From the NCBI GenBank assembly GCA_003345555.1, contig PRDJ01000057.1:30001-62000 (forward strand): a stretch of 32,000 bases of DNA, given 5' to 3'. The DNA is from Candidatus Thorarchaeota archaeon (lineage in GTDB: Archaea; Asgardarchaeota; Thorarchaeia; Thorarchaeales; Thorarchaeaceae). The position numbers were made by a program, and so were the translations under genes. Positions 2 through 7,866 of the stretch are shown here, piece by piece. The notes below the pieces were generated by a model. It saw only the letters and a list, made by a program, of their open reading frames with translations, made no database searches and was not told the origin of the DNA. How positions within the stretch are numbered: position 1 is the first letter of the stretch; each line of letters starts with the position of its first letter.

Positions 2-355
2 GATGCAAACCATCATTTGCTGGAGCGCAGAACATCAGGAACAACTGGCACACTGTATGTACCTTCCGGGCAAGAAGTGGATTGGCGAAGCAACATACCA
101 TCATCTATCCACTTAGACGCCGGGGTCAAGGTGACTGGTCCTACCCTTGTATGCGAATCATGTCGCATAGAATCGGAATCCAGAATCGGCCCATTCGCAA
201 CAATCGGCCCGAACTGTCATGTCGGTGCGAGGACCATTATCGCAGAATCAATCCTATTCGAGCAATCTGAAGTACCGGGCGATGTCACTCTCGAGAATGC
301 GGCCGTTTATGGGCAGACACCGTACAGGAGCAAAACCAGATATGTCCCCCAGTAG
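2..355 (+). CDS. 5'-truncated NDP-sugar pyrophosphorylase (mannose-1-P guanylyltransferase/GlmU-like), C-terminal left-handed beta-helix
   Basis: Frame is open from the window edge (DANHHLLE...). Hexapeptide-like repeats follow: VKVTGPTLVCESCRIESESRIGPFATIGPNCHVGARTIIAESILF. Confidence 0.7.
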   Translation, partial: DANHHLLERRTSGTTGTLYVPSGQEVDWRSNIPSSIHLDAGVKVTGPTLVCESCRIESESRIGPFATIGPNCHVGARTIIAESILFEQSEVPGDVTLENAAVYGQTPYRSKTRYVPQ

Positions 356-956
356 GTTTCGGCTCAGACGCGTCTTCAGAAGACCCATTTCACTCGTGGC
401 TCGTCCGCTCGTGAAGGCGGGAGTTCGCCCTGATACAGTCAGCTATCTTTCGCTTCTTGCCGCGGTCATTGCGTGGCTCACACTTCTGATTTTGCACCTT
501 CCCGTCGAGTACGGAATACTTGTCTTCATCGTAGGCATTCTCGACGGATTGGATGGGGCTGTTGCAAGGGGAAGCGGTCGCGTTTCAAGAAGTGGTGCAC
601 TGACGGACTCGGTCGTTGATAAGGTCGCTGAAGTTGTGCTGCTCGTAGCAATAGGAACCGCATACCCCGATGATGTTGTCCTAGGCCTCCCTGTCAGCAT
701 TTGGGTCATTCTTTGCGTGTCGGGTTGGTTACTGACCAGTTACACTAGGTCAAGAGCCGAAGCGCTGGGTGTGACTGACTTGGATGTTGGTCTGGGTGGG
801 CGTTCTGAGCGTCTCTTAATCTTGGCAGTCTTCTCCATGCTCGGGTGTCTACTTTGGGGTCTGGTGGTGTCAACATTCTTGGGGTTACTTACTGCTGGCT
901 ATCGATTCAGTCACTACAAAGGCGAACTCGGAATTGCGGATCGAACCGTTTCTTAG
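342..956 (+). CDS. CDP-alcohol phosphatidyltransferase (archaetidylinositol-phosphate synthase/PgsA-like)
   Basis: Signature DGLDGAVARGSGRVSRSGALTDSVVDKVAE, SYTRSRAE and RSERL motifs, and several hydrophobic helices. Start moved to ATG 342, overlapping the upstream gene. Confidence 0.9.
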   Translation: MSPSRFRLRRVFRRPISLVARPLVKAGVRPDTVSYLSLLAAVIAWLTLLILHLPVEYGILVFIVGILDGLDGAVARGSGRVSRSGALTDSVVDKVAEVVLLVAIGTAYPDDVVLGLPVSIWVILCVSGWLLTSYTRSRAEALGVTDLDVGLGGRSERLLILAVFSMLGCLLWGLVVSTFLGLLTAGYRFSHYKGELGIADRTVS

Positions 957-1054
957 AGAGTGCCTCAATTCATCTCAGCATTTGTGACCACCATGCTTAA
1001 GAGTCGCCTCAGGCCGCGCGCCTCTTGAAATCATCAAGTGGGAGTCTCGCGACT

Positions 1055-1471
1055 ATGGCCAAGTTCAGAGCGGATCATTACTTGACGGCGGAGTTCGAGA
1101 AGGCTGATGCCAGCACAGATACAAAGAGGGTCTTAGAAGCGCTCCAAGGTATAAAGGAACTCAAGGATCTCGCCGTAGTTTCAAGGAAATTAGAGGGTAA
1201 ACAGTGGTCTGAGATTCTAGGGCGGGTAGACATTCCAGCTGGTTCGAGGGAGTTCTTCGCAATGATCAAGAAAGACACAACACCACGCGAGCCCTACAAC
1301 CTCTTCATAAGAATCGACATCAATCAAGAGGCCCCAGATATCGGCGCGGCCCGCGCGGCGGCGAAGGGCTGGATTGAAAGTGAGTTCGTGCCCAGAATCA
1401 GGGCGAAGATAATTGTAAGGTCAATAAGGGTTCTGCAGCCAGAAGAGCTATACCGACCCAGAATCAGCTAG
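1055..1471 (+). CDS. hypothetical protein (138 aa, soluble alpha/beta)
   Basis: Long ORF filling the gap, with ATG at 1055 and CTTAAG at 996-1001 upstream. No motif recognised. Confidence 0.65.
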   Translation: MAKFRADHYLTAEFEKADASTDTKRVLEALQGIKELKDLAVVSRKLEGKQWSEILGRVDIPAGSREFFAMIKKDTTPREPYNLFIRIDINQEAPDIGAARAAAKGWIESEFVPRIRAKIIVRSIRVLQPEELYRPRIS

Positions 1472-1478
1472 CACCGAA

Positions 1479-2483
1479 TCACGGTACGGCTGTGATGAGG
1501 TTCAAGTTGTTACCTATCGCCTGTACAATTTCCGTGTTACCGTCTCCATCGAAATCACCAAGTGCCAAGAGAGACTCCACGGGCTTTGGGGCGGTTTTCA
1601 GCGACGCATCTTGAATTAGCTCCTCGCCGTTGTAGGAGAGGAGCAGGATTGTTGAGTCTCTCAGGCTAAGTACAATATGCTGCAGGTGCGAGTCCTTCTG
1701 GAGGTGTCCCACTTGAAGGGAGCTCACTTCAGATGGCAATTTCAGGCCCGTCTTCATTTCTAGCTTGCTCTGCCCCATGGCAAGCAAACCAAGAGCGCGG
1801 CCGTCCGATACAATGACCACATCGTCATTCTTGTCCCCCGTTATGTTGCCTGTGGCTAGAAGATGCCCCTCGCCCCCCACAGTCAGTCTCGAAAGCTCCT
1901 GCAGCCTATCATCTGCATAATGGTACACATAAAGCGACCCAGAATCATCGCCGAATACAAGTCCGCTATATGGCATTCCTCTATTTCTCAAGGGCTGCAA
2001 AGAAAATGTTGGCCTATCTGTCGTCTTGTGGGCCAATTTGTCAAGGGATGCTTCGAACCATCCATAGCATCTCAATGCTCCGTCATTAGTAGCGACTATC
2101 ACTTCTGCTGTCTCATTGCCAACAACATTGGTGACACAGAGAGCAGTGGGGAGGCTGCCAAGTTGAACAGTGTCCCTTACAACCAATTTTCTTTCCACCG
2201 ACGATATCACTCGAAGGGCATTGTCGAGGCCGCCAACTATGAGGTCGGTGGTGCCAACGTCTGTGACGTTTCCTGTAGAAAGAGCAACTACGGGCGGTAG
2301 TCCTGTTGCCACAGATACTTGAACCAGTCTCGGCTTTCTGACGGTCTCGATACGCATGATTCTTACGTCGCCATCAATTGTCGAGACAACAAGGTTGCTA
2401 CGTTCTCGTCCGCTAAAGGCCGCCGCACTCAGGGACGTTATTGCTTCCTTTAATGAAAACTCAGCAATGACTCCCAGATTCAT
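1479..2483 (-). CDS. seven-bladed beta-propeller protein with FG-GAP-like repeats, no signal peptide
   Basis: Seven roughly 45-50 aa repeats, e.g. TGNVTDVGTTDLIVGG, TNVVGNETAEVIVAT, TGNITGDKNDDVVIV, LGDFDGDGNTEIV. GAGGT upstream of the ATG. Confidence 0.75.
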   Translation of the reverse strand: MNLGVIAEFSLKEAITSLSAAAFSGRERSNLVVSTIDGDVRIMRIETVRKPRLVQVSVATGLPPVVALSTGNVTDVGTTDLIVGGLDNALRVISSVERKLVVRDTVQLGSLPTALCVTNVVGNETAEVIVATNDGALRCYGWFEASLDKLAHKTTDRPTFSLQPLRNRGMPYSGLVFGDDSGSLYVYHYADDRLQELSRLTVGGEGHLLATGNITGDKNDDVVIVSDGRALGLLAMGQSKLEMKTGLKLPSEVSSLQVGHLQKDSHLQHIVLSLRDSTILLLSYNGEELIQDASLKTAPKPVESLLALGDFDGDGNTEIVQAIGNNLNLITAVP

Positions 2484-2655
2484 CTGGTGACGACCTCTTC
2501 GGTAGTACGATTACCGCGAGGTGGTTGGGAGTCGTGGACTTGATTTAAGACTTGTTCCACCGGTATCATCGATAGAGCCACAACCGTAATCGCACGGCTG
2601 TGCATGTAGTGATGCGCTTAAGACCTTCAGTGAATGATATGAGTGTGGATTGCCC

Positions 2656-3201
2656 ATGGATCAACACGATAGCAGCGTTTCCCTGAGTCCTGAGGCATGG
2701 GCCGCGTCGTCTGAGAGAGTAGCGGAGGAGTTGCGTTCGTTCATTAGGGACATGGGTTCCTTCTCCCCTGACTGGTTCGTGGAAGTCAAATTCCATCTAC
2801 TTCGACAGTCTGGACTGACCAAGGCGAGCAGAGCAGAACTGTGCAGGATATCAATCCAAGGAAGTCACTGCAAGAAGTGCGAGGAACTCTATGAGGCGAG
2901 GACTTGCCTGCTATGGTCTCGCCTGTTCTCGATGGCAAGAACCGCTGTGGACGACCGCTGTCCTCCGTGTATCAGGATAGCCCTCAGTAGGAACAGTCTC
3001 AAGACCGTAGCTAATTTCCTGACGAGCGCATACCTGATTGATGCTCCCTTCTACAAACACCGCAAAGCGTCATCCTGCAAGACTATGGCACAATGGGGGT
3101 ATTGCAGACCTGATGAATACTGTCGGGGAATAAAGAGTGGAAATCCTCTCGAATACATCTCTGCCAGGGAAAGAGTGAAGCTGGCTCGACCGATTCATTA
3201 A
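2656..3201 (+). CDS. small Cys-rich protein with a primase large subunit (PriL) C-terminal Fe-S-like domain
   Basis: PPC-x35-C-x8-C-x5-C followed by RGIKSGNPLEY, resembling the archaeal PriL FPPC...SC...C.PD..C..I.NPL.Y pattern. Alternative start is TTG 2650. Confidence 0.65.
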   Translation: MDQHDSSVSLSPEAWAASSERVAEELRSFIRDMGSFSPDWFVEVKFHLLRQSGLTKASRAELCRISIQGSHCKKCEELYEARTCLLWSRLFSMARTAVDDRCPPCIRIALSRNSLKTVANFLTSAYLIDAPFYKHRKASSCKTMAQWGYCRPDEYCRGIKSGNPLEYISARERVKLARPIH

Positions 3202-3283
3202 ACAATGCCTTGGGCCGCGTAGCTCCTTAAGTACACCTTACCGCATACTCACAGTGAGGTCGGATTCCTTGCCAAGGAAACGT

Positions 3284-4801
3284 ATGGAGACCGAGTCATC
3301 GCCGCCCGGAGACATGGACCCAGCTATTGCAGAACTCATCCGTTTGACAGGAATGCGGGAATCAGCTATTGTCACAGCCCGCAAGAGACAGGATGAGGCT
3401 TGGAAGGGAATTGGCGCAATACTCTCGGAACACAAACGCATCATTGCCATTGGTGGTCGGCATACTCGTCAAAAAGCAATTCAGGACCCTGTTCACGGGG
3501 CGATTATCCTAGATCCATGGGAACTGGATCTGATTTCCAGCTGGGAGATGCTGAGGCTCCGATACATTAAGCAGCTCGGGCCTGCCTGTATAGTCTATCC
3601 AGGAGCAACGCATACTCGATTCGAACACTGCCTTGGCACGAACTTTCTCACTCAGAAGTGCATTAGGGTCGTCAACTACTGTGAAGACCTTCGTGGTGCC
3701 TGCTTCAAGCCACTCTCCGAGCTACTTGACGCCGACCAGCAGAAAGTCTTCAGGGCTGCTGCCTTGCTACACGATGTTGGTCATCCTCCGACGTCACACA
3801 CAATCGAATTCCCGTTAAGATGCTGGACCGGTCTCACCCATGTTGACCTCGGTGAGTTGCTCATAATGCGTAGCGGTATCACGGAGATACTTGAGCAGAG
3901 TGGTATCGAACCGAGAGCGGTCGTGGATGTTCTCAAGCGTAGGAAGAGCGACCCAGTGCTGGATCTTCTGTCCGATTTTCTGGACTCGCCTCTCGATTTG
4001 GACAAGACTGACTATCTGATTCGTGATGCTCATTTCAGCGGTGTCCAGCTCGGGATCTTCCCTGCAGAGCGAATCATGCTGACAAACCGCGTGGTTCGCG
4101 ACTCTGAAGGCAAGTATGTGCGGGCATTCATGTTGAAGGCATTACACTCGCTTGAGGCACTGATTCTAAGCCGTAACTGGATGTTCTCAGACCTTTATCT
4201 GCATCATGCCGTCCGGGTCGCAGAAGCGCTTACGTCCAAAGCCACCTACTTCAGGATGAAGGAAGAGAAACTTTCCAAGAATGAGTGCATTGGCTTCTTC
4301 ACCAGGATGACCGATTCCGACCTATACCAGTGGCTTGGTGAGTCTAAGATTGATTTTGTTCGTGAGTACGTGGCTAGGATTAGGTACCGGAGACTGTTCA
4401 AAGTGGCCATATCAAGACCGATTGCTGCCCTTGAACCCGACGCAAGGAAGCGAGTCCTCGCCATGCTCTCCGACATTGATCGCCTCCTTGAAGCTGAGAC
4501 TGCGCTTGACGAGAACCCCGGGAGAGTGATAATTGATGTGCTGAATCCTGAACTGGGGTTCAGATTCCTATCGACTATTCCTCTCCTCATCGGGAAAGAA
4601 GACTCGGGCTTGGAGATAGCGAGTCTAAGAGACACAGATGAAGGGCGGCCTCTTGTACACGCATTGAACCAGCAGAGGTTCACCATTCCATCAGTCCGAG
4701 TTTACTGCGACCCAGAAATCGCGATTCACGTTAGGCGGCAGTTCCATAGAGAATTTCCGACAGTTCGACCTGAGCACAACGCAGAAGATGACTTCCAATG
4801 A
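3284..4801 (+). CDS. HD-domain phosphohydrolase, SAMHD1/dNTP triphosphohydrolase-like
   Basis: IQDPVHG, RLRYIKQLG, YPGATHTRFEHCLG, ALLHDVGH and DLDKTDYLIRD motifs. Start is uncertain (3254/3284/3314). Confidence 0.88.
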   Translation: METESSPPGDMDPAIAELIRLTGMRESAIVTARKRQDEAWKGIGAILSEHKRIIAIGGRHTRQKAIQDPVHGAIILDPWELDLISSWEMLRLRYIKQLGPACIVYPGATHTRFEHCLGTNFLTQKCIRVVNYCEDLRGACFKPLSELLDADQQKVFRAAALLHDVGHPPTSHTIEFPLRCWTGLTHVDLGELLIMRSGITEILEQSGIEPRAVVDVLKRRKSDPVLDLLSDFLDSPLDLDKTDYLIRDAHFSGVQLGIFPAERIMLTNRVVRDSEGKYVRAFMLKALHSLEALILSRNWMFSDLYLHHAVRVAEALTSKATYFRMKEEKLSKNECIGFFTRMTDSDLYQWLGESKIDFVREYVARIRYRRLFKVAISRPIAALEPDARKRVLAMLSDIDRLLEAETALDENPGRVIIDVLNPELGFRFLSTIPLLIGKEDSGLEIASLRDTDEGRPLVHALNQQRFTIPSVRVYCDPEIAIHVRRQFHREFPTVRPEHNAEDDFQ

Positions 4802-4825
4802 AATCCTGAGTCCAAGCATCATCGA

Positions 4826-5536
4826 TCAGAAATCATGCGTCGGGTCATTGTGTCTTTCTAGATGAGAGATAAGTCGTCTCACCTCATCCAAGCCCTGCTC
4901 AATGTACACGATTCCGTAGACAGCCTCCAGAAGTGTACCTTTTGTATGACTAATCTCAGACTTTGTAGGACTGGGCGGATCGAAATGAATGCGATAGTCA
5001 TAGAGCCCCCAGAGGTCACACAGCCATGCCAGATGTTCGTTGCTGACAAGTTCCGCCCGCGACTGGGTCAGCAGCCCTGCATCAGCAACCTTAGGACGCC
5101 ACAGATGATGAAGGACTGCCATTGAGATTGCTGCATCTCCAACTAGGGCCAAGACTTTAGCCATGTCACTCAGCGACTTCAGATTCACGAAAAGATCTGA
5201 ATCAGGAAATGACCTCTCATTCGCAAAATGAGTTTCAAGCTCAAGGAATAGGTTTCTCGTGCTGGGCTGGAACATTGCTATCGAGAGAAGCTCTGTCTCT
5301 TCAAAGTGCAATCCTACTATTGACGAAAGTCTTGGCACCAAGACGTTGCGAATCTGAGCCAGTGCAGAGATGATGGTCTCAAGCTGCTGTCTCCAGCGCT
5401 CAAGCCTGGCGAGTAGGCGTGTGTTCTGTCGTGGGATGTCTGCCGCACTGGAATTGACCCCGGCAAGCAACAATCCCAGCTTGTCTTCAATGCCTACGTG
5501 TTCCCAGTGCAGTTCCGTCCCTGTTCGGGTTCTCAT
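4826..5536 (-). CDS. stand-alone RNase III-domain protein (Mini-III-like, no dsRBD)
   Basis: GLHFEETELLSIAMFQPS (RNase III first helix), VLALVGDAAI, LTQSRAELVSNEHLA and GTLLEAVYGIVYIEQG. No C-terminal dsRBD. Confidence 0.8.
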   Translation of the reverse strand: MRTRTGTELHWEHVGIEDKLGLLLAGVNSSAADIPRQNTRLLARLERWRQQLETIISALAQIRNVLVPRLSSIVGLHFEETELLSIAMFQPSTRNLFLELETHFANERSFPDSDLFVNLKSLSDMAKVLALVGDAAISMAVLHHLWRPKVADAGLLTQSRAELVSNEHLAWLCDLWGLYDYRIHFDPPSPTKSEISHTKGTLLEAVYGIVYIEQGLDEVRRLISHLERHNDPTHDF

Positions 5537-6330
5537 ATCATGCCTTCTCCAGGGACTATGTGAGTTACCGCAGTCTTCTCTCCCTCATGACGTTGTATGT
5601 AAATGGCCGTGAGTGAGTACTGCATTGCGATAAGGCATAGTGCCAGCAAGATCACTGAAGGTCCTGTAGAGAGGTTCACAATGGGTTCGGACTCCGGCAG
5701 GGCCTCAAGAACAACCTTCTCAATATGTGCATAGGTCGCCATCAGGTCTCCTCTTATGCGTCCTTCCTCATAGCCTGCCACCTTGGCTGGCAGTTCATGC
5801 CAAGTGGTCTGCCATTTCTTTGTTACTCCTTCGGGCACATATCTGTCAATGTTCTTGCTGACCCCTCGGGCGAAGCGCTCTTGTTCAACAACCAGCCGGA
5901 GGAACTTGAAGTTGAATGTCATTTCCTTGGCATACCACATCATGAGCGGACGTGCATCTTCTGGTTGACCAATGGATGTGATCAGAGTGCCTGGCCTCGA
6001 AATGCCTAGAGCTCTTCTGGCAGACTGGATTGCTCTCGGGTGTAGCTCGAATATTCTTTGCTGCGAATCCTTTCTGCTCACGATTATGCCTAGGTCTTCC
6101 AGATGCTTTGTGTTGAAGTAGAGCTTGGGGTCGGTTACCTTGAAGTCGTCGGGTTTCACGTTCTTCATGCCTGCCTGAACTGCCTCAGCCATCATGTTCT
6201 TTCTGATGCTTTCTCTAAGTTCAGTCCCCGTCTTTGAGCCGCCTTCGAGCTGGTCCAGTATTATGCGACGAACCGCAACGCTCTGCACTTCCGCCTTGAC
6301 GAGCGTGTCCATGTGGTTTGAGAACATCAT
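5533..6330 (-). CDS. N-terminal winged-HTH fused to a CARF-like Rossmann domain
   Basis: wHTH: RRIILDQLEGGSKTGTEL...LYFNTKHLEDLGII...RIFEL. CARF-like part: TLITSIG, GDLMATYAHIEKVV, IVNLSTGPSVILLAL...IYI. ATGA overlap with the RNase III gene. Confidence 0.62.
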   Translation of the reverse strand: MMFSNHMDTLVKAEVQSVAVRRIILDQLEGGSKTGTELRESIRKNMMAEAVQAGMKNVKPDDFKVTDPKLYFNTKHLEDLGIIVSRKDSQQRIFELHPRAIQSARRALGISRPGTLITSIGQPEDARPLMMWYAKEMTFNFKFLRLVVEQERFARGVSKNIDRYVPEGVTKKWQTTWHELPAKVAGYEEGRIRGDLMATYAHIEKVVLEALPESEPIVNLSTGPSVILLALCLIAMQYSLTAIYIQRHEGEKTAVTHIVPGEGMI

Positions 6331-6726
6331 ATTCGGTCAAACTCTACTAACAATACTTCATATATATAATGTGTATATTCGCATAAGTGTTCCTGCATTT
6401 TCCCGGGCAAGAAGTGGGCGCGCACGATTATGAAATGACTCGGTGCAGTGGCGAATTTCGGCATGCTCAATGCCTCCGCCAAGAACCATCTAAGCCAGTT
6501 CTGACAAGTCGCATCTCTGCTGCCATTGCCAGAGGAAGAGAGGCATATACAGTATACATAGGTCATGTCGTTCTTTGTCGGATATGCCCGTTTTTTCGGA
6601 CTTATCTAAGATTCCCTTAAATGTCCCGGTCCGACTCTTCCTCTCAATTAGGGTTCTAGTAGGATGCTTCATGCATTCTGAATCTTAACACAAGTCAAAA
6701 ACAGAAAACAAGAGGACCGACACAAA

Positions 6727-7866
6727 TTGGCCGAAGACGAATTCCTGGGCGCAAAGCCAGTTGTCATCGACAATGGCACTGGACTTAGCAAAAACGGGTA
6801 TGCAGGAGAAGACCAACCACGAAGTGTCTGGCCGACGCTGATTGGCTATCCAAGATACGAGTCAATCATGACCGACGTAGATCACTACACTCGTGACTAC
6901 TATATCGGCGAGGAGGCCATCAACCTACGAGGTGTCTTGCGTCTTGTGTATCCTATTACTCACGGAGTAATTGATGACTGGGACGCTATCGAGAAGATCT
7001 GGTCGTACACATTCTATAACGACCTGAAAGTCGACCCGAGCGAGAATCCTGTGCTTCTTACAGAAGCTCCATTCAATCCGCGAGAGAACAGAGAGCGAAT
7101 GGCATCAGTGATGTTCGAGAACTTTGGAGTCCCAGCAGTGTATGTAGCGACGCAAGCAGTGCTGTCACTGTACGCGTCCGGAAGAACAACGGGTCTAGTC
7201 ATTGACTCGGGTGACGGTGTTACTCACATAGTCCCAATTTACGAAGGATTCGCGATTACACACGCTATCCGAAGAATCGACTTGGCTGGCCGTGACGTAA
7301 CGGAATACCTGCGTAGGCTGCTCAGACAGAGGGGTTACTCCTTCGTGAGCGGTGCTGAGAAAGAGATCGTTAGGGACATCAAGGAGAAGCTCTGCTATGT
7401 CGCCCTCGACCCTGAGAGGGAGAGAACAGTGGCTGACAAAGCAGGTGTCGACAAGCCCTACATGCTGCCAGACGGCGAGGTAATCACCGTTGGCGCTGAG
7501 AGGTTCCAAGCACCAGAGCTGTACTTCAACCCGAGCGCGATCGGCCTTGACACTTCGCCACTCGACGACCACATTGTCGAGTCAATCAAGGCGTGTGATG
7601 TGGACCTAAGACGTGATCTGTACGCGAACATCGTACTATCCGGTGGTTCAACTATGTTCCCAGGACTGAAGGAGAGACTCCACAAGGAAATCACCGAACT
7701 GGTCCCGGAGAACATCGAGGTCAGAATCATTGCTCCTCCGGAGAGACAATACTCGGTCTGGATTGGTGGAAGCATCCTTGCTTCACTCAAGACCTTCCAG
7801 AAGATGTGGGTGTCGAAGAAGGAGTTCGAGGAATCAGGCCCCGAAGTCATCCACCGCTGTATCTAA
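6727..7866 (+). CDS. Asgard actin (Lokiactin type)
   Basis: [97 protein letters not shown] start. Confidence 0.97.

Follow-up and report, generated by a model that had tools for sequence, protein, structure and literature searches.

The locus and the mini gene

The window considered here is a 32,000-nucleotide stretch of a Candidatus Thorarchaeota archaeon (assembly GCA_003345555.1, contig PRDJ01000057.1, positions 30,001 to 62,000 of the forward strand), and its subject is a small plus-strand gene, the mini gene, whose product (P0001, the mini protein) carries two cysteine clusters, the second of them in a C-terminal half that very probably descends from the iron–sulfur (Fe–S) C-terminal domain (CTD) of the primase subunit PriL. 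The open frame runs from 2650 or 2656 to 3201, and homologues point to the ATG at 2656 as the start, for a protein of 181 residues. Its features, in window coordinates, are as follows.

2656..3201, plus strand: coding sequence of the mini protein, stop codon included, 181 residues; homologues share the ATG start
2689..2871, plus strand: helix-turn-helix (HTH)/winged-helix-like N-module, residues 12–72, acidic; AlphaFold2 (AF2) predicted local distance difference test (pLDDT) score ∼80–90; weak VIA-align matches
2842..2907, plus strand: first Cys4 site, residues 63–84, C-x8-C-x2-C-x8-C; four cysteines in 40/40 homologues; putative Zn or Fe–S site
2920..3198, plus strand: truncated PriL-CTD-like domain (C-domain), residues 89–181, basic (isoelectric point, pI, 9.85); from hhalign and fold matches
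2968..2970, plus strand: Cys105 (R-x-P-P-C-I-R), predicted first [4Fe–4S] ligand, 40/40; pairs with the Cys of PriL FPPC
3076..3078, plus strand: Cys141, predicted second ligand, 40/40; pairs with the Cys of PriL Y-T-P-P-x-C
3103..3105, plus strand: Cys150, predicted third ligand, 40/40; pairs with the Cys of PriL L-C
3121..3123, plus strand: Cys156, predicted fourth ligand, 39/40; pairs with the fourth PriL Cys

Among 5.8 billion proteins, a word-indexed search recovered 37 near-full-length homologues of 174–207 residues (expectation value E ≤ 8e-50), and those among them that carry a name are all 'hypothetical protein' from Thorarchaeota. HMMER, run exhaustively with a profile over 1.8 billion representatives, gave 15 matches in total, including distant members of 150–236 residues, with some clusters labelled Freyarchaeota/Freyrarchaeum and Jordarchaeaceae. 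Six-frame searches located the gene in 95 of 400 Asgard genomes, that of the window (G000) included. With the latter set aside, it is found in 82 of 85 genomes of the window's own family (f1, whose database homologues are labelled Thorarchaeota), in five of five and six of six genomes of two families that match Frey- and Jordarchaeal records (f15 and f16, respectively), and in the single genome (1/1) of one further family (f5); the same searches did not find it in 302 further Asgard genomes outside these four families. Completeness is 77–87% in the three f1 genomes that lack a match, and the gene is almost always single-copy where present. Contigs of 151 nt from a wetland metatranscriptome match the window with 100% identity at 2655–2933, and also inside the neighboring HD-domain and RNase III-like genes; such contigs cannot give transcript ends, strand or level, and parts left uncovered carry no meaning, so that they are a weak hint of mini-gene transcription. 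The mini gene is a real, conserved gene of Asgard archaea.

The mini protein was aligned across 40 sequences from three Asgard lineages that share 25–84% identity with P0001. An initial annotation, made from the DNA letters, had read the cysteine series as C63-x8-C72-x2-C75-x8-C84 followed by C102-P-P-C105-x35-C141-x8-C150-x5-C156 and RGIKSGNPLEY; each element of this pattern is exact, and seven of the eight paired cysteines (C63, C72, C75, C84, C105, C141 and C150) are present in 40 of 40 sequences and C156 in 39, the single exception looking like a one-residue misalignment. Other near-invariant positions are W15, P38, R101, P103, R107, Y167, R171 and K175. Two of the motifs singled out at that stage need rewording. 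The letters CPPC are present, but their first cysteine, C102, is Ala, Ser or Thr in most homologues, and the true motif is therefore R-x-P-P-C-I-R, the CPPC being accidental. The NPL.Y ending holds for its tyrosine (Tyr167, in 39/40), but the full motif is only partly kept and mostly reads N-T/V-L-E-Y. A Pfam scan of the mini protein detected no family, its sole match being a spurious one to EGF.

Relationship of the C-terminal domain to PriL

The relationship to PriL emerges from profile-to-profile comparison. A profile of the C-domain (residues 88–181 of the 40 sequences) was aligned by hhalign with 27 archaeal-type Asgard PriLs, giving a probability of 81% (E 1.2e-5) against the whole proteins and of 91% (E 1.1e-6, score 40.0) against the CTD alone. 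The pairing sets P-P-C-I-R opposite F-P-P-C-I-R, then the second, third and fourth cysteines in register, and then N-x-L-E-Y opposite H-P-L-x-F-Y. In 200 shuffles of the PriL CTD columns the score was 11.8 ± 2.4 with a maximum of 21.8, which leaves the observed value ∼11.7 standard deviations away, and the reversed profile scored 8.9. The eukaryote-like PriLs of Heimdall-type lineages match the C-domain poorly (E 0.02–0.05), and in the N-terminal half of the mini protein neither hhalign (P 0.14–0.69) nor Pfam (PF26466) finds anything of PriL.

Searches with single sequences or models also lead to PriL. The three best NCBIfam matches are PriL models at the C-terminal end (E 0.015–0.13), at 12–15 bits against cut-offs of 339–439. 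When the PriL-CTD hidden Markov model (HMM) was run with filters off over 10,760 six-frame open reading frames (ORFs) of the genome, the mini ORF ranked second, behind PriL itself, with E 0.51. A first search with a mini-protein profile against PDB sequences gave no match; at E < 10 a PDB profile search gave two matches only, the archaeal PriL 9f26_B, matched at both its PPC and its C...C...NPLxYY segments, and a viral nicking-joining enzyme that we put down to chance.

Structure comparison adds to this. The AF2 model of residues 85–181 (pLDDT 86, predicted template modelling score 0.72) has as its best two ESM-Atlas fold matches clusters of archaeal PF04104 (PriL) proteins, with template modelling (TM) scores by query of 0.57 and 0.60, 76–77 of 97 residues aligned and a root-mean-square deviation (rmsd) of 2.9–3.1 Å. 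The best two of 48,161 PDB chains compared by VIA-align are the PriL Fe–S domains of yeast (6di2_A) and human (5dqo_A), both at Z 3.8 over 82–87 of 97 residues with 14–18% identity, and the unrelated rows below them span only ∼45 residues. With the full-length model (pLDDT 80), residues 88–177 match the same two chains at Z 4.4, and the top two Atlas rows are again PriL clusters. Searches of the ESM Atlas by sequence features and with its own model, a poor one (pLDDT 0.37), returned sub-threshold, unrelated rows only.

It might be supposed instead that the PriL cysteine spacing has come to be mimicked by a small helical protein, unrelated to PriL, that is rich in cysteine and binds metal. Several results favor such convergence and count against descent from PriL: the HMM-to-sequence signals are each non-significant alone (E 0.015–0.5); the Pfam scan does not find PF04104 in the mini protein, and a genome-wide PF04104 search finds only the canonical gene on contig C9; matches to PDB folds score low (Z 3.8, rmsd 4.4–5.0 Å); Foldseek against the PDB, with the whole model and with the C-domain, gave nothing at E ≤ 0.001; and the aligned region is short (∼77 columns, ∼25% identity) and dominated by cysteines. 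Because of the blank Foldseek search and the low Z values, the fold evidence is corroborating and not decisive. However, the shuffles preserve composition and still fall far below the observed score, features other than cysteine align as well (R/F-P-P-C-I-R, a hydrophobic helix, (N/H)-x-L-x-Y and the terminal helix), and PriL ranks first in two libraries with ∼80–90% of the domain covered. Convergence is thus improbable, and the C-domain very probably descends from the PriL CTD. The match to PriL by profile and structure that had been anticipated is borne out by hhalign, the Atlas and VIA-align, but not by PF04104 (DNA_primase_lrg) itself, and since this family model does not detect the mini protein, the latter counts as a relative of the PriL-CTD type rather than as a member of the PriL family. 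We class it as an uncharacterised family within the PriL-CTD superfamily.

A reduced domain beside a complete primase

The same genome encodes a canonical PriL on contig C9, likely of 367 residues from the start MLRYPF, whose homologues carry PF26466 and PF04104 in 373–405 residues, and one PriS on contig C50, adjoining PCNA. PriL was found in each of the 61 Asgard genomes sampled for it, carriers of the mini gene among them. Prim-Pol (PF09250) was not found in the genome, which is 93% complete, and there is thus no orphan archaeo-eukaryotic primase (AEP) for the mini protein to serve. Because they lie on separate contigs, priS and priL are not adjacent here; the pair is mostly kept together, according to one survey (PMC12680538). 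PriS sits between PCNA and a 210-residue ORF, and PriL beside a methyltransferase and an OGG/HhH-like gene.

With canonical PriL and PriS encoded elsewhere, the mini gene is not a broken priL, a possibility that the initial annotation had kept in view. A degraded priL fragment or pseudogene would fit a protein of half the PriL size with motifs of the CTD only, but priL is intact, the ∼181 residues and eight cysteines are kept across ∼95 genomes down to 25–30% identity without stops, and PriL has no counterpart of the N-terminal half; this reading is excluded. Coexistence with a normal primase makes the mini protein a candidate for an undescribed replication accessory factor.

The mini protein shares with the PriL CTD (PF04104; 6di2, 5dqo p58C, 9f26) the four cysteines in order, P-P-C-I-R, (N/H)-x-L-x-Y and the terminal helix; both domains have a basic surface, and PriL is the best fold match in two libraries. 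The CTD of the genome's own PriL reads FPPC-x71-C-x8-C-x12-C...HPLGFY, and Jord/Frey-type PriLs have a long first spacer followed by C-x8-C-x5-C...HPLxYY, of which the C-x8-C-x5-C recurs in the mini protein. Thus, as had been stated at that stage, the first spacer of PriL is about twice as long (∼71 residues versus 35) and the protein about twice as large (∼367–375 residues versus 181). Unlike PriL, the mini protein has no N-terminal PriS-binding domain (PF26466), and it carries an unrelated N-module with a second Cys4 site and exists beside a normal PriL. The proposal of a stand-alone PriL paralogue that kept its cluster ligands agrees with four cysteines that are invariant and in register with those of the PriL CTD.

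The losses are internal to the domain. Columns at least 95% conserved in the CTDs of the 27 archaeal-type PriLs comprise F-P-P-C, H-x2-R-F, F-L-x2-G, Y-Q-x-x-H-I, Y-x-P-x-C, L-C, C and P-x2-Y. In alignment with them the mini protein retains the helix that comes directly after PPC, part of the second helix (..TVANFL.. opposite ..FALAAFLL..), the loops rich in cysteine and the final helix, and the H-x2-R-F and Y-Q-x-x-H-I segments fall opposite gaps, in keeping with the earlier suggestion that intervening helices were lost. The Fe-S_N subdomain is therefore only partly present, a part of ∼36 residues that holds both motifs being gone. We take the lost motifs to be the equivalents of H300/R302/R306 and Y345/Y347 of human p58C, which bind the triphosphate of the initiating nucleoside triphosphate (NTP) and the primer-template. 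What is left looks like a cluster-binding scaffold minus the classical substrate site; its pI of 9.85 stands against 5.9 for residues 1–88.

The N-terminal module and its other homes

In the AF2 model, helices at 19–33, 38–44 and 56–68 are followed by the Cys4 region, where pLDDT drops below 50 at residues 76–83, and then by a helix at 85–97. Residues 12–72 match FapR, ArgR, sigma-54 RpoN, forkhead and Z-alpha structures weakly in VIA-align (Z 3.5–5.2, rmsd 1.6–2.3 Å). A Pfam HTH match was not found in the mini protein, and the model is suggestive of an HTH/winged-helix-like N-module (residues ∼1–88). The Cys4 spacing of f1, C-x8-C-x2-C-x8-C, becomes C-x9-C-x2-C-x3/4-C in Jord/Frey-type members, a pattern that could, we presume, suit either a Zn knuckle or an EndoIII/AddB-style [4Fe–4S] motif; judged from its cysteine pattern, the probable occupant of this first site is a structural Zn or a second Fe–S cluster. 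That at least one of the two Cys4 sites of the mini protein binds metal is quite likely.

The module also occurs outside the mini protein. Together with its Cys4 site (profile positions ∼5–86) it heads P-loop proteins of 712–740 residues (P0049–P0051; HMMER E 1e-6 to 1e-5 over 1.8 billion sequences), and its first half is found in a helicase of the f1 genome G315.

L050:8001-10160, L053:7422-9644 and L054:3387-5609: N-module P-loop proteins with Cys4, downstream of large ParB-like genes
L098:8764-10575, plus strand: D5-type helicase of G315, 604 residues; first half of the N-module, no Cys4
L098:12812-13732: tyrosine-integrase gene of G315, ∼2.2 kb from the D5-type helicase gene

The label 'helicase' for P0049–P0051 is owed to two features, a Walker A motif and a VapE/helicase match below threshold; their profile was uninformative against the PDB. 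Their contigs carry co-directional small ORFs and the adjoining ParB-like genes, with no primase gene recognised, and are probably Thorarchaeal viruses or plasmids. The G315 helicase has the domains D5_N (E 3e-14), DUF5906 (E 1e-22) and Pox_D5, and the integrase gene nearby probably places it in an integrated element. From these matches, the N-module is common to the cellular mini protein and to mobile-element proteins, at least one of them a replication helicase. A further candidate relative, P0044 (908 residues, 11 repeats), was rejected as a low-complexity false positive. Relatives of the mini protein were found neither in phage or plasmid collections by tblastn nor in an IMG/VR scan, and PHROGs and PADLOC gave no match for it.

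Genomic neighborhood and upstream word

Synteny was compared in f1 over 12 short and 12 long loci, the long ones (L086–L097) spanning 12 genera. The features that surround the mini gene in the window are given below.

171-7863: eight-gene core block, same order in 12 genera
2610..2624, plus strand: promoter-like element TGATGCGCTTAAGAC, BRE (B recognition element)/TATA-like, 32–46 nt upstream of the mini ATG
3254..4801, plus strand: homologue of the SAMHD1/EF1143-family HD deoxynucleoside triphosphate (dNTP) triphosphohydrolases, with ATG 3284 the likelier start; Pfam HD and HD_assoc_2
4826-5536, minus strand: RNase III-domain gene, its start overlapped by the CARF-like gene
5533-6330, minus strand: CARF-like gene, 265 residues; PADLOC CARF_m5, E 8.5e-18

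The order of the block is CDP-alcohol transferase, a 148-residue protein, a beta-propeller of FG-GAP/BBS-like type (minus strand), mini (plus), HD (plus), RNase III-like (minus), CARF-like (minus) and actin (plus), and since this order is stable across genera the region is a core region and not an island. The HD protein matches PDB chains, SAMHD1 included, at E 4e-34 to 1e-23. No CRISPR-Cas genes were seen near the CARF-like gene in the part examined. Synteny of the mini gene with the HD gene, which the initial annotation had raised for survey across Asgard genomes, holds in 23 of 24 f1 loci (L092 alone has no HD gene at the block position) but in none of the f5, f15 and f16 genomes, where none of the f1 block neighbors is present. 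In the f5 genome (G005) a DEAD/Helicase_C/MrfA-Zn-binding helicase lies 77 nt downstream of the mini homologue on the same strand (L014:797-3400, minus).

The company of SAMHD1-like dNTPase, RNase III-like and CARF-like genes raises the prospect of a defence or stress module acting by dNTP depletion and RNA cleavage. The four adjacent genes work on nucleotides or nucleic acids, the 265-residue neighbor matches a CARF model (E 8.5e-18), and the N-module is common to mobile elements. Patchy islands, however, are unlike a block that is syntenic in 12 genera, flanked by actin, and built around a near-universal, single-copy gene; PADLOC returns a marginal match for the HD protein (E 9e-4) and none for the mini protein, and the mini gene occurs without these neighbors in other lineages. 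A syntenic, single-copy core gene whose product PADLOC does not match is poorly suited to a defence role, which is disfavored and very improbable.

Upstream of the mini gene, the word yTGATGnGCTTAAGAC is kept in 12 f1 loci, and in the same loci a related word, GTGATGnCTTAWATAC, precedes the HD gene (window ∼3219–3234). From its position and sequence, the element at 2610–2624 may act as a promoter. As a related word precedes each gene, the HD gene probably has a promoter of its own, and the mini and HD genes may be co-regulated. An operon of the two genes was considered but is not supported, given the promoter-like element of the HD gene, a link confined to one family and the missing HD gene in L092.

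The same words bear on the main rival explanation, a DNA-binding regulator that senses through its cluster, which we consider plausible though, on balance, rather unlikely. The mini protein would then be a transcription factor sensing redox state, iron, O2 or NO, with its N-module on an operator and a PriL-derived sensor domain used as in Rrf2- or WhiB-type regulators, and it may control its own gene and the adjacent SAMHD1-like dNTPase gene. An HTH-like module joined to a domain with a Cys-ligated cluster suits such a protein, as do the loss of the PriL substrate-binding motifs and the conservation across genera of a related 15–16-nt word before both genes; the search pattern had 8 of 8 hits in 173 kb of f1 DNA before the HD gene only, so that the word is not a generic promoter word. 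Yet the word stands at the BRE/TATA position and may be a mere promoter, and TGATGn(G)CTTAA..AC is not enriched genome-wide (12 hits). The HD neighbor is missing in the Jord/Frey-type and f5 genomes, as in L092, the other homes of the N-module are mobile-element P-loop proteins and one D5-type replicative helicase and not regulators, and Pfam and NCBIfam scans gave no known regulator family.

Comparison with known PriL-derived proteins

PriX of Sulfolobales, a third, non-catalytic primase subunit, is a separate PriL-CTD-like precedent (PMC5700102). Like it, the mini protein is a small, stand-alone relative of the PriL CTD that the genome carries besides PriS and PriL. PriX has no Fe–S cluster; its likeness is to the larger Fe-S_N subdomain, and it provides an initiating-NTP site (PMC5700102, PMC5862659); the mini protein is the reverse, with cluster ligands kept and most of Fe-S_N lost. 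The lineages differ as well, Thermoproteota for PriX and Asgard for the mini protein, and PriX, a six-helix bundle with an NTP-binding helix N-cap that docks between PriS and PriL, was not among the listed fold matches, nor was a direct sequence or structure match to it obtained.

Primases of the PolpTN2 family are arranged as AEP-PriCT-PriL-like-winged helix, and a PriL-like (predicted 4Fe–4S)/PriCT region with a winged helix is found in mobile-element primases (PMC5862659, PMC3973330). The mini protein resembles them in that its N-module also heads proteins of mobile elements, among which is a D5-type replication helicase. These primases, however, are fused to an AEP catalytic domain, with the winged helix after the PriL-like part, whereas the mini protein has no catalytic domain and the reversed order, and its gene is chromosomal, single-copy and core.

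Reduction of PriL is also known from Nanoarchaeum equitans, in whose fused monomeric primase PriL is reduced to its CTD (PMC10250227), and an Atlas cluster of Nanobdellota proteins of ∼180 residues is annotated as having the PriL CTD only, with PF04104 on 23% of members and a TM score of 0.57 to the C-domain. There the reduced PriL provides the sole PriL function with a CTD of normal size, whereas the mini protein is an extra, further truncated paralogue.

A possible role in replication

The explanation that we favor, to which we give about an even chance as a whole, is that the mini protein is a small two-domain metalloprotein additional to the canonical primase subunits, serving as a non-catalytic, nucleic-acid-binding Fe–S accessory factor of replication or priming in Thor- and Jordarchaeia. 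Its first domain (∼1–88) would be an acidic HTH/winged-helix-like module ending in a Cys4 site, C-x8/9-C-x2-C-x3-8-C, and may dock the protein on DNA or on a component of the replisome. The second (89–181) would be a basic, truncated PriL CTD with four [4Fe–4S] ligands, the helix that follows PPC and the terminal helix, and this cluster-stabilised domain may contact DNA, RNA or the primase. A [4Fe–4S] cluster in the C-domain, metal in the N-terminal site and nucleic-acid binding are all inferred. Because the motifs that bind substrate have been lost and the genome retains an intact canonical PriL, the mini protein cannot merely take the place of the PriL CTD at the initiation site. Besides the conservation of the gene and the likeness to the PriL CTD, the explanation draws on the N-module held in common with mobile-element proteins such as the D5-type helicase of G315, on the basic pI of the C-domain, on the precedent of the PolpTN2 family and on the place of the gene in a core syntenic block. 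A complex prediction with PriS, the PriL N-domain and the mini protein scored 0.00, which is neither for nor against binding.

The role itself is the more tentative part, and a function in replication or priming falls a little short of an even chance. Besides the low sequence and fold scores described above, several observations weigh against it. With H-x2-RF and YQxxHI absent, the H-x2-R-F loop and the whole Y-Q-x-x-H-I segment being gaps, the classical function of the CTD may be lost. The winged-helix assignment stands at Z ∼5 only, under the level at which the tool claims a fold, and an architecture of winged helix plus cluster would suit a transcription factor just as well. In the compared loci none of the conserved neighbors encodes a primase, polymerase or helicase, and in f5, f15 and f16 the mini gene is flanked by glycosidases, flavoproteins and unrelated metabolic genes.

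A bolder form of the accessory-factor explanation can be entertained as a minor and rather unlikely prospect. The mini protein would be a third Fe–S subunit of the primase or replisome with a PriX-like role, derived independently and from the cluster half of the CTD; its N-module would be a docking device that mobile-element proteins of Thorarchaea, including D5-like helicases, use to hijack host priming, and priming would perhaps be coupled to the dNTP pool through the co-regulated SAMHD1-like enzyme.

Implications

Asgard replication proteins are closely studied as ancestors of the eukaryotic replisome. Two surveys of Asgard primases published in 2025 describe PriS and PriL only, and term searches of their text brought up no such protein (PMC12770985, PMC12680538). 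A conserved extra paralogue of the PriL Fe–S domain would be the second independent archaeal case, after PriX, in which the CTD was split off or duplicated. Were the mini protein a regulator, it would be, to our knowledge, the first known example of a sensor domain derived from PriL.

The role of the [4Fe–4S] cluster of primase is still debated, and because only the cluster-binding scaffold is kept, the mini protein would be a minimal system in which to approach it. That its N-module recurs in proteins of mobile elements, a D5-type helicase among them, points in addition to a host–virus interface in the initiation of replication.

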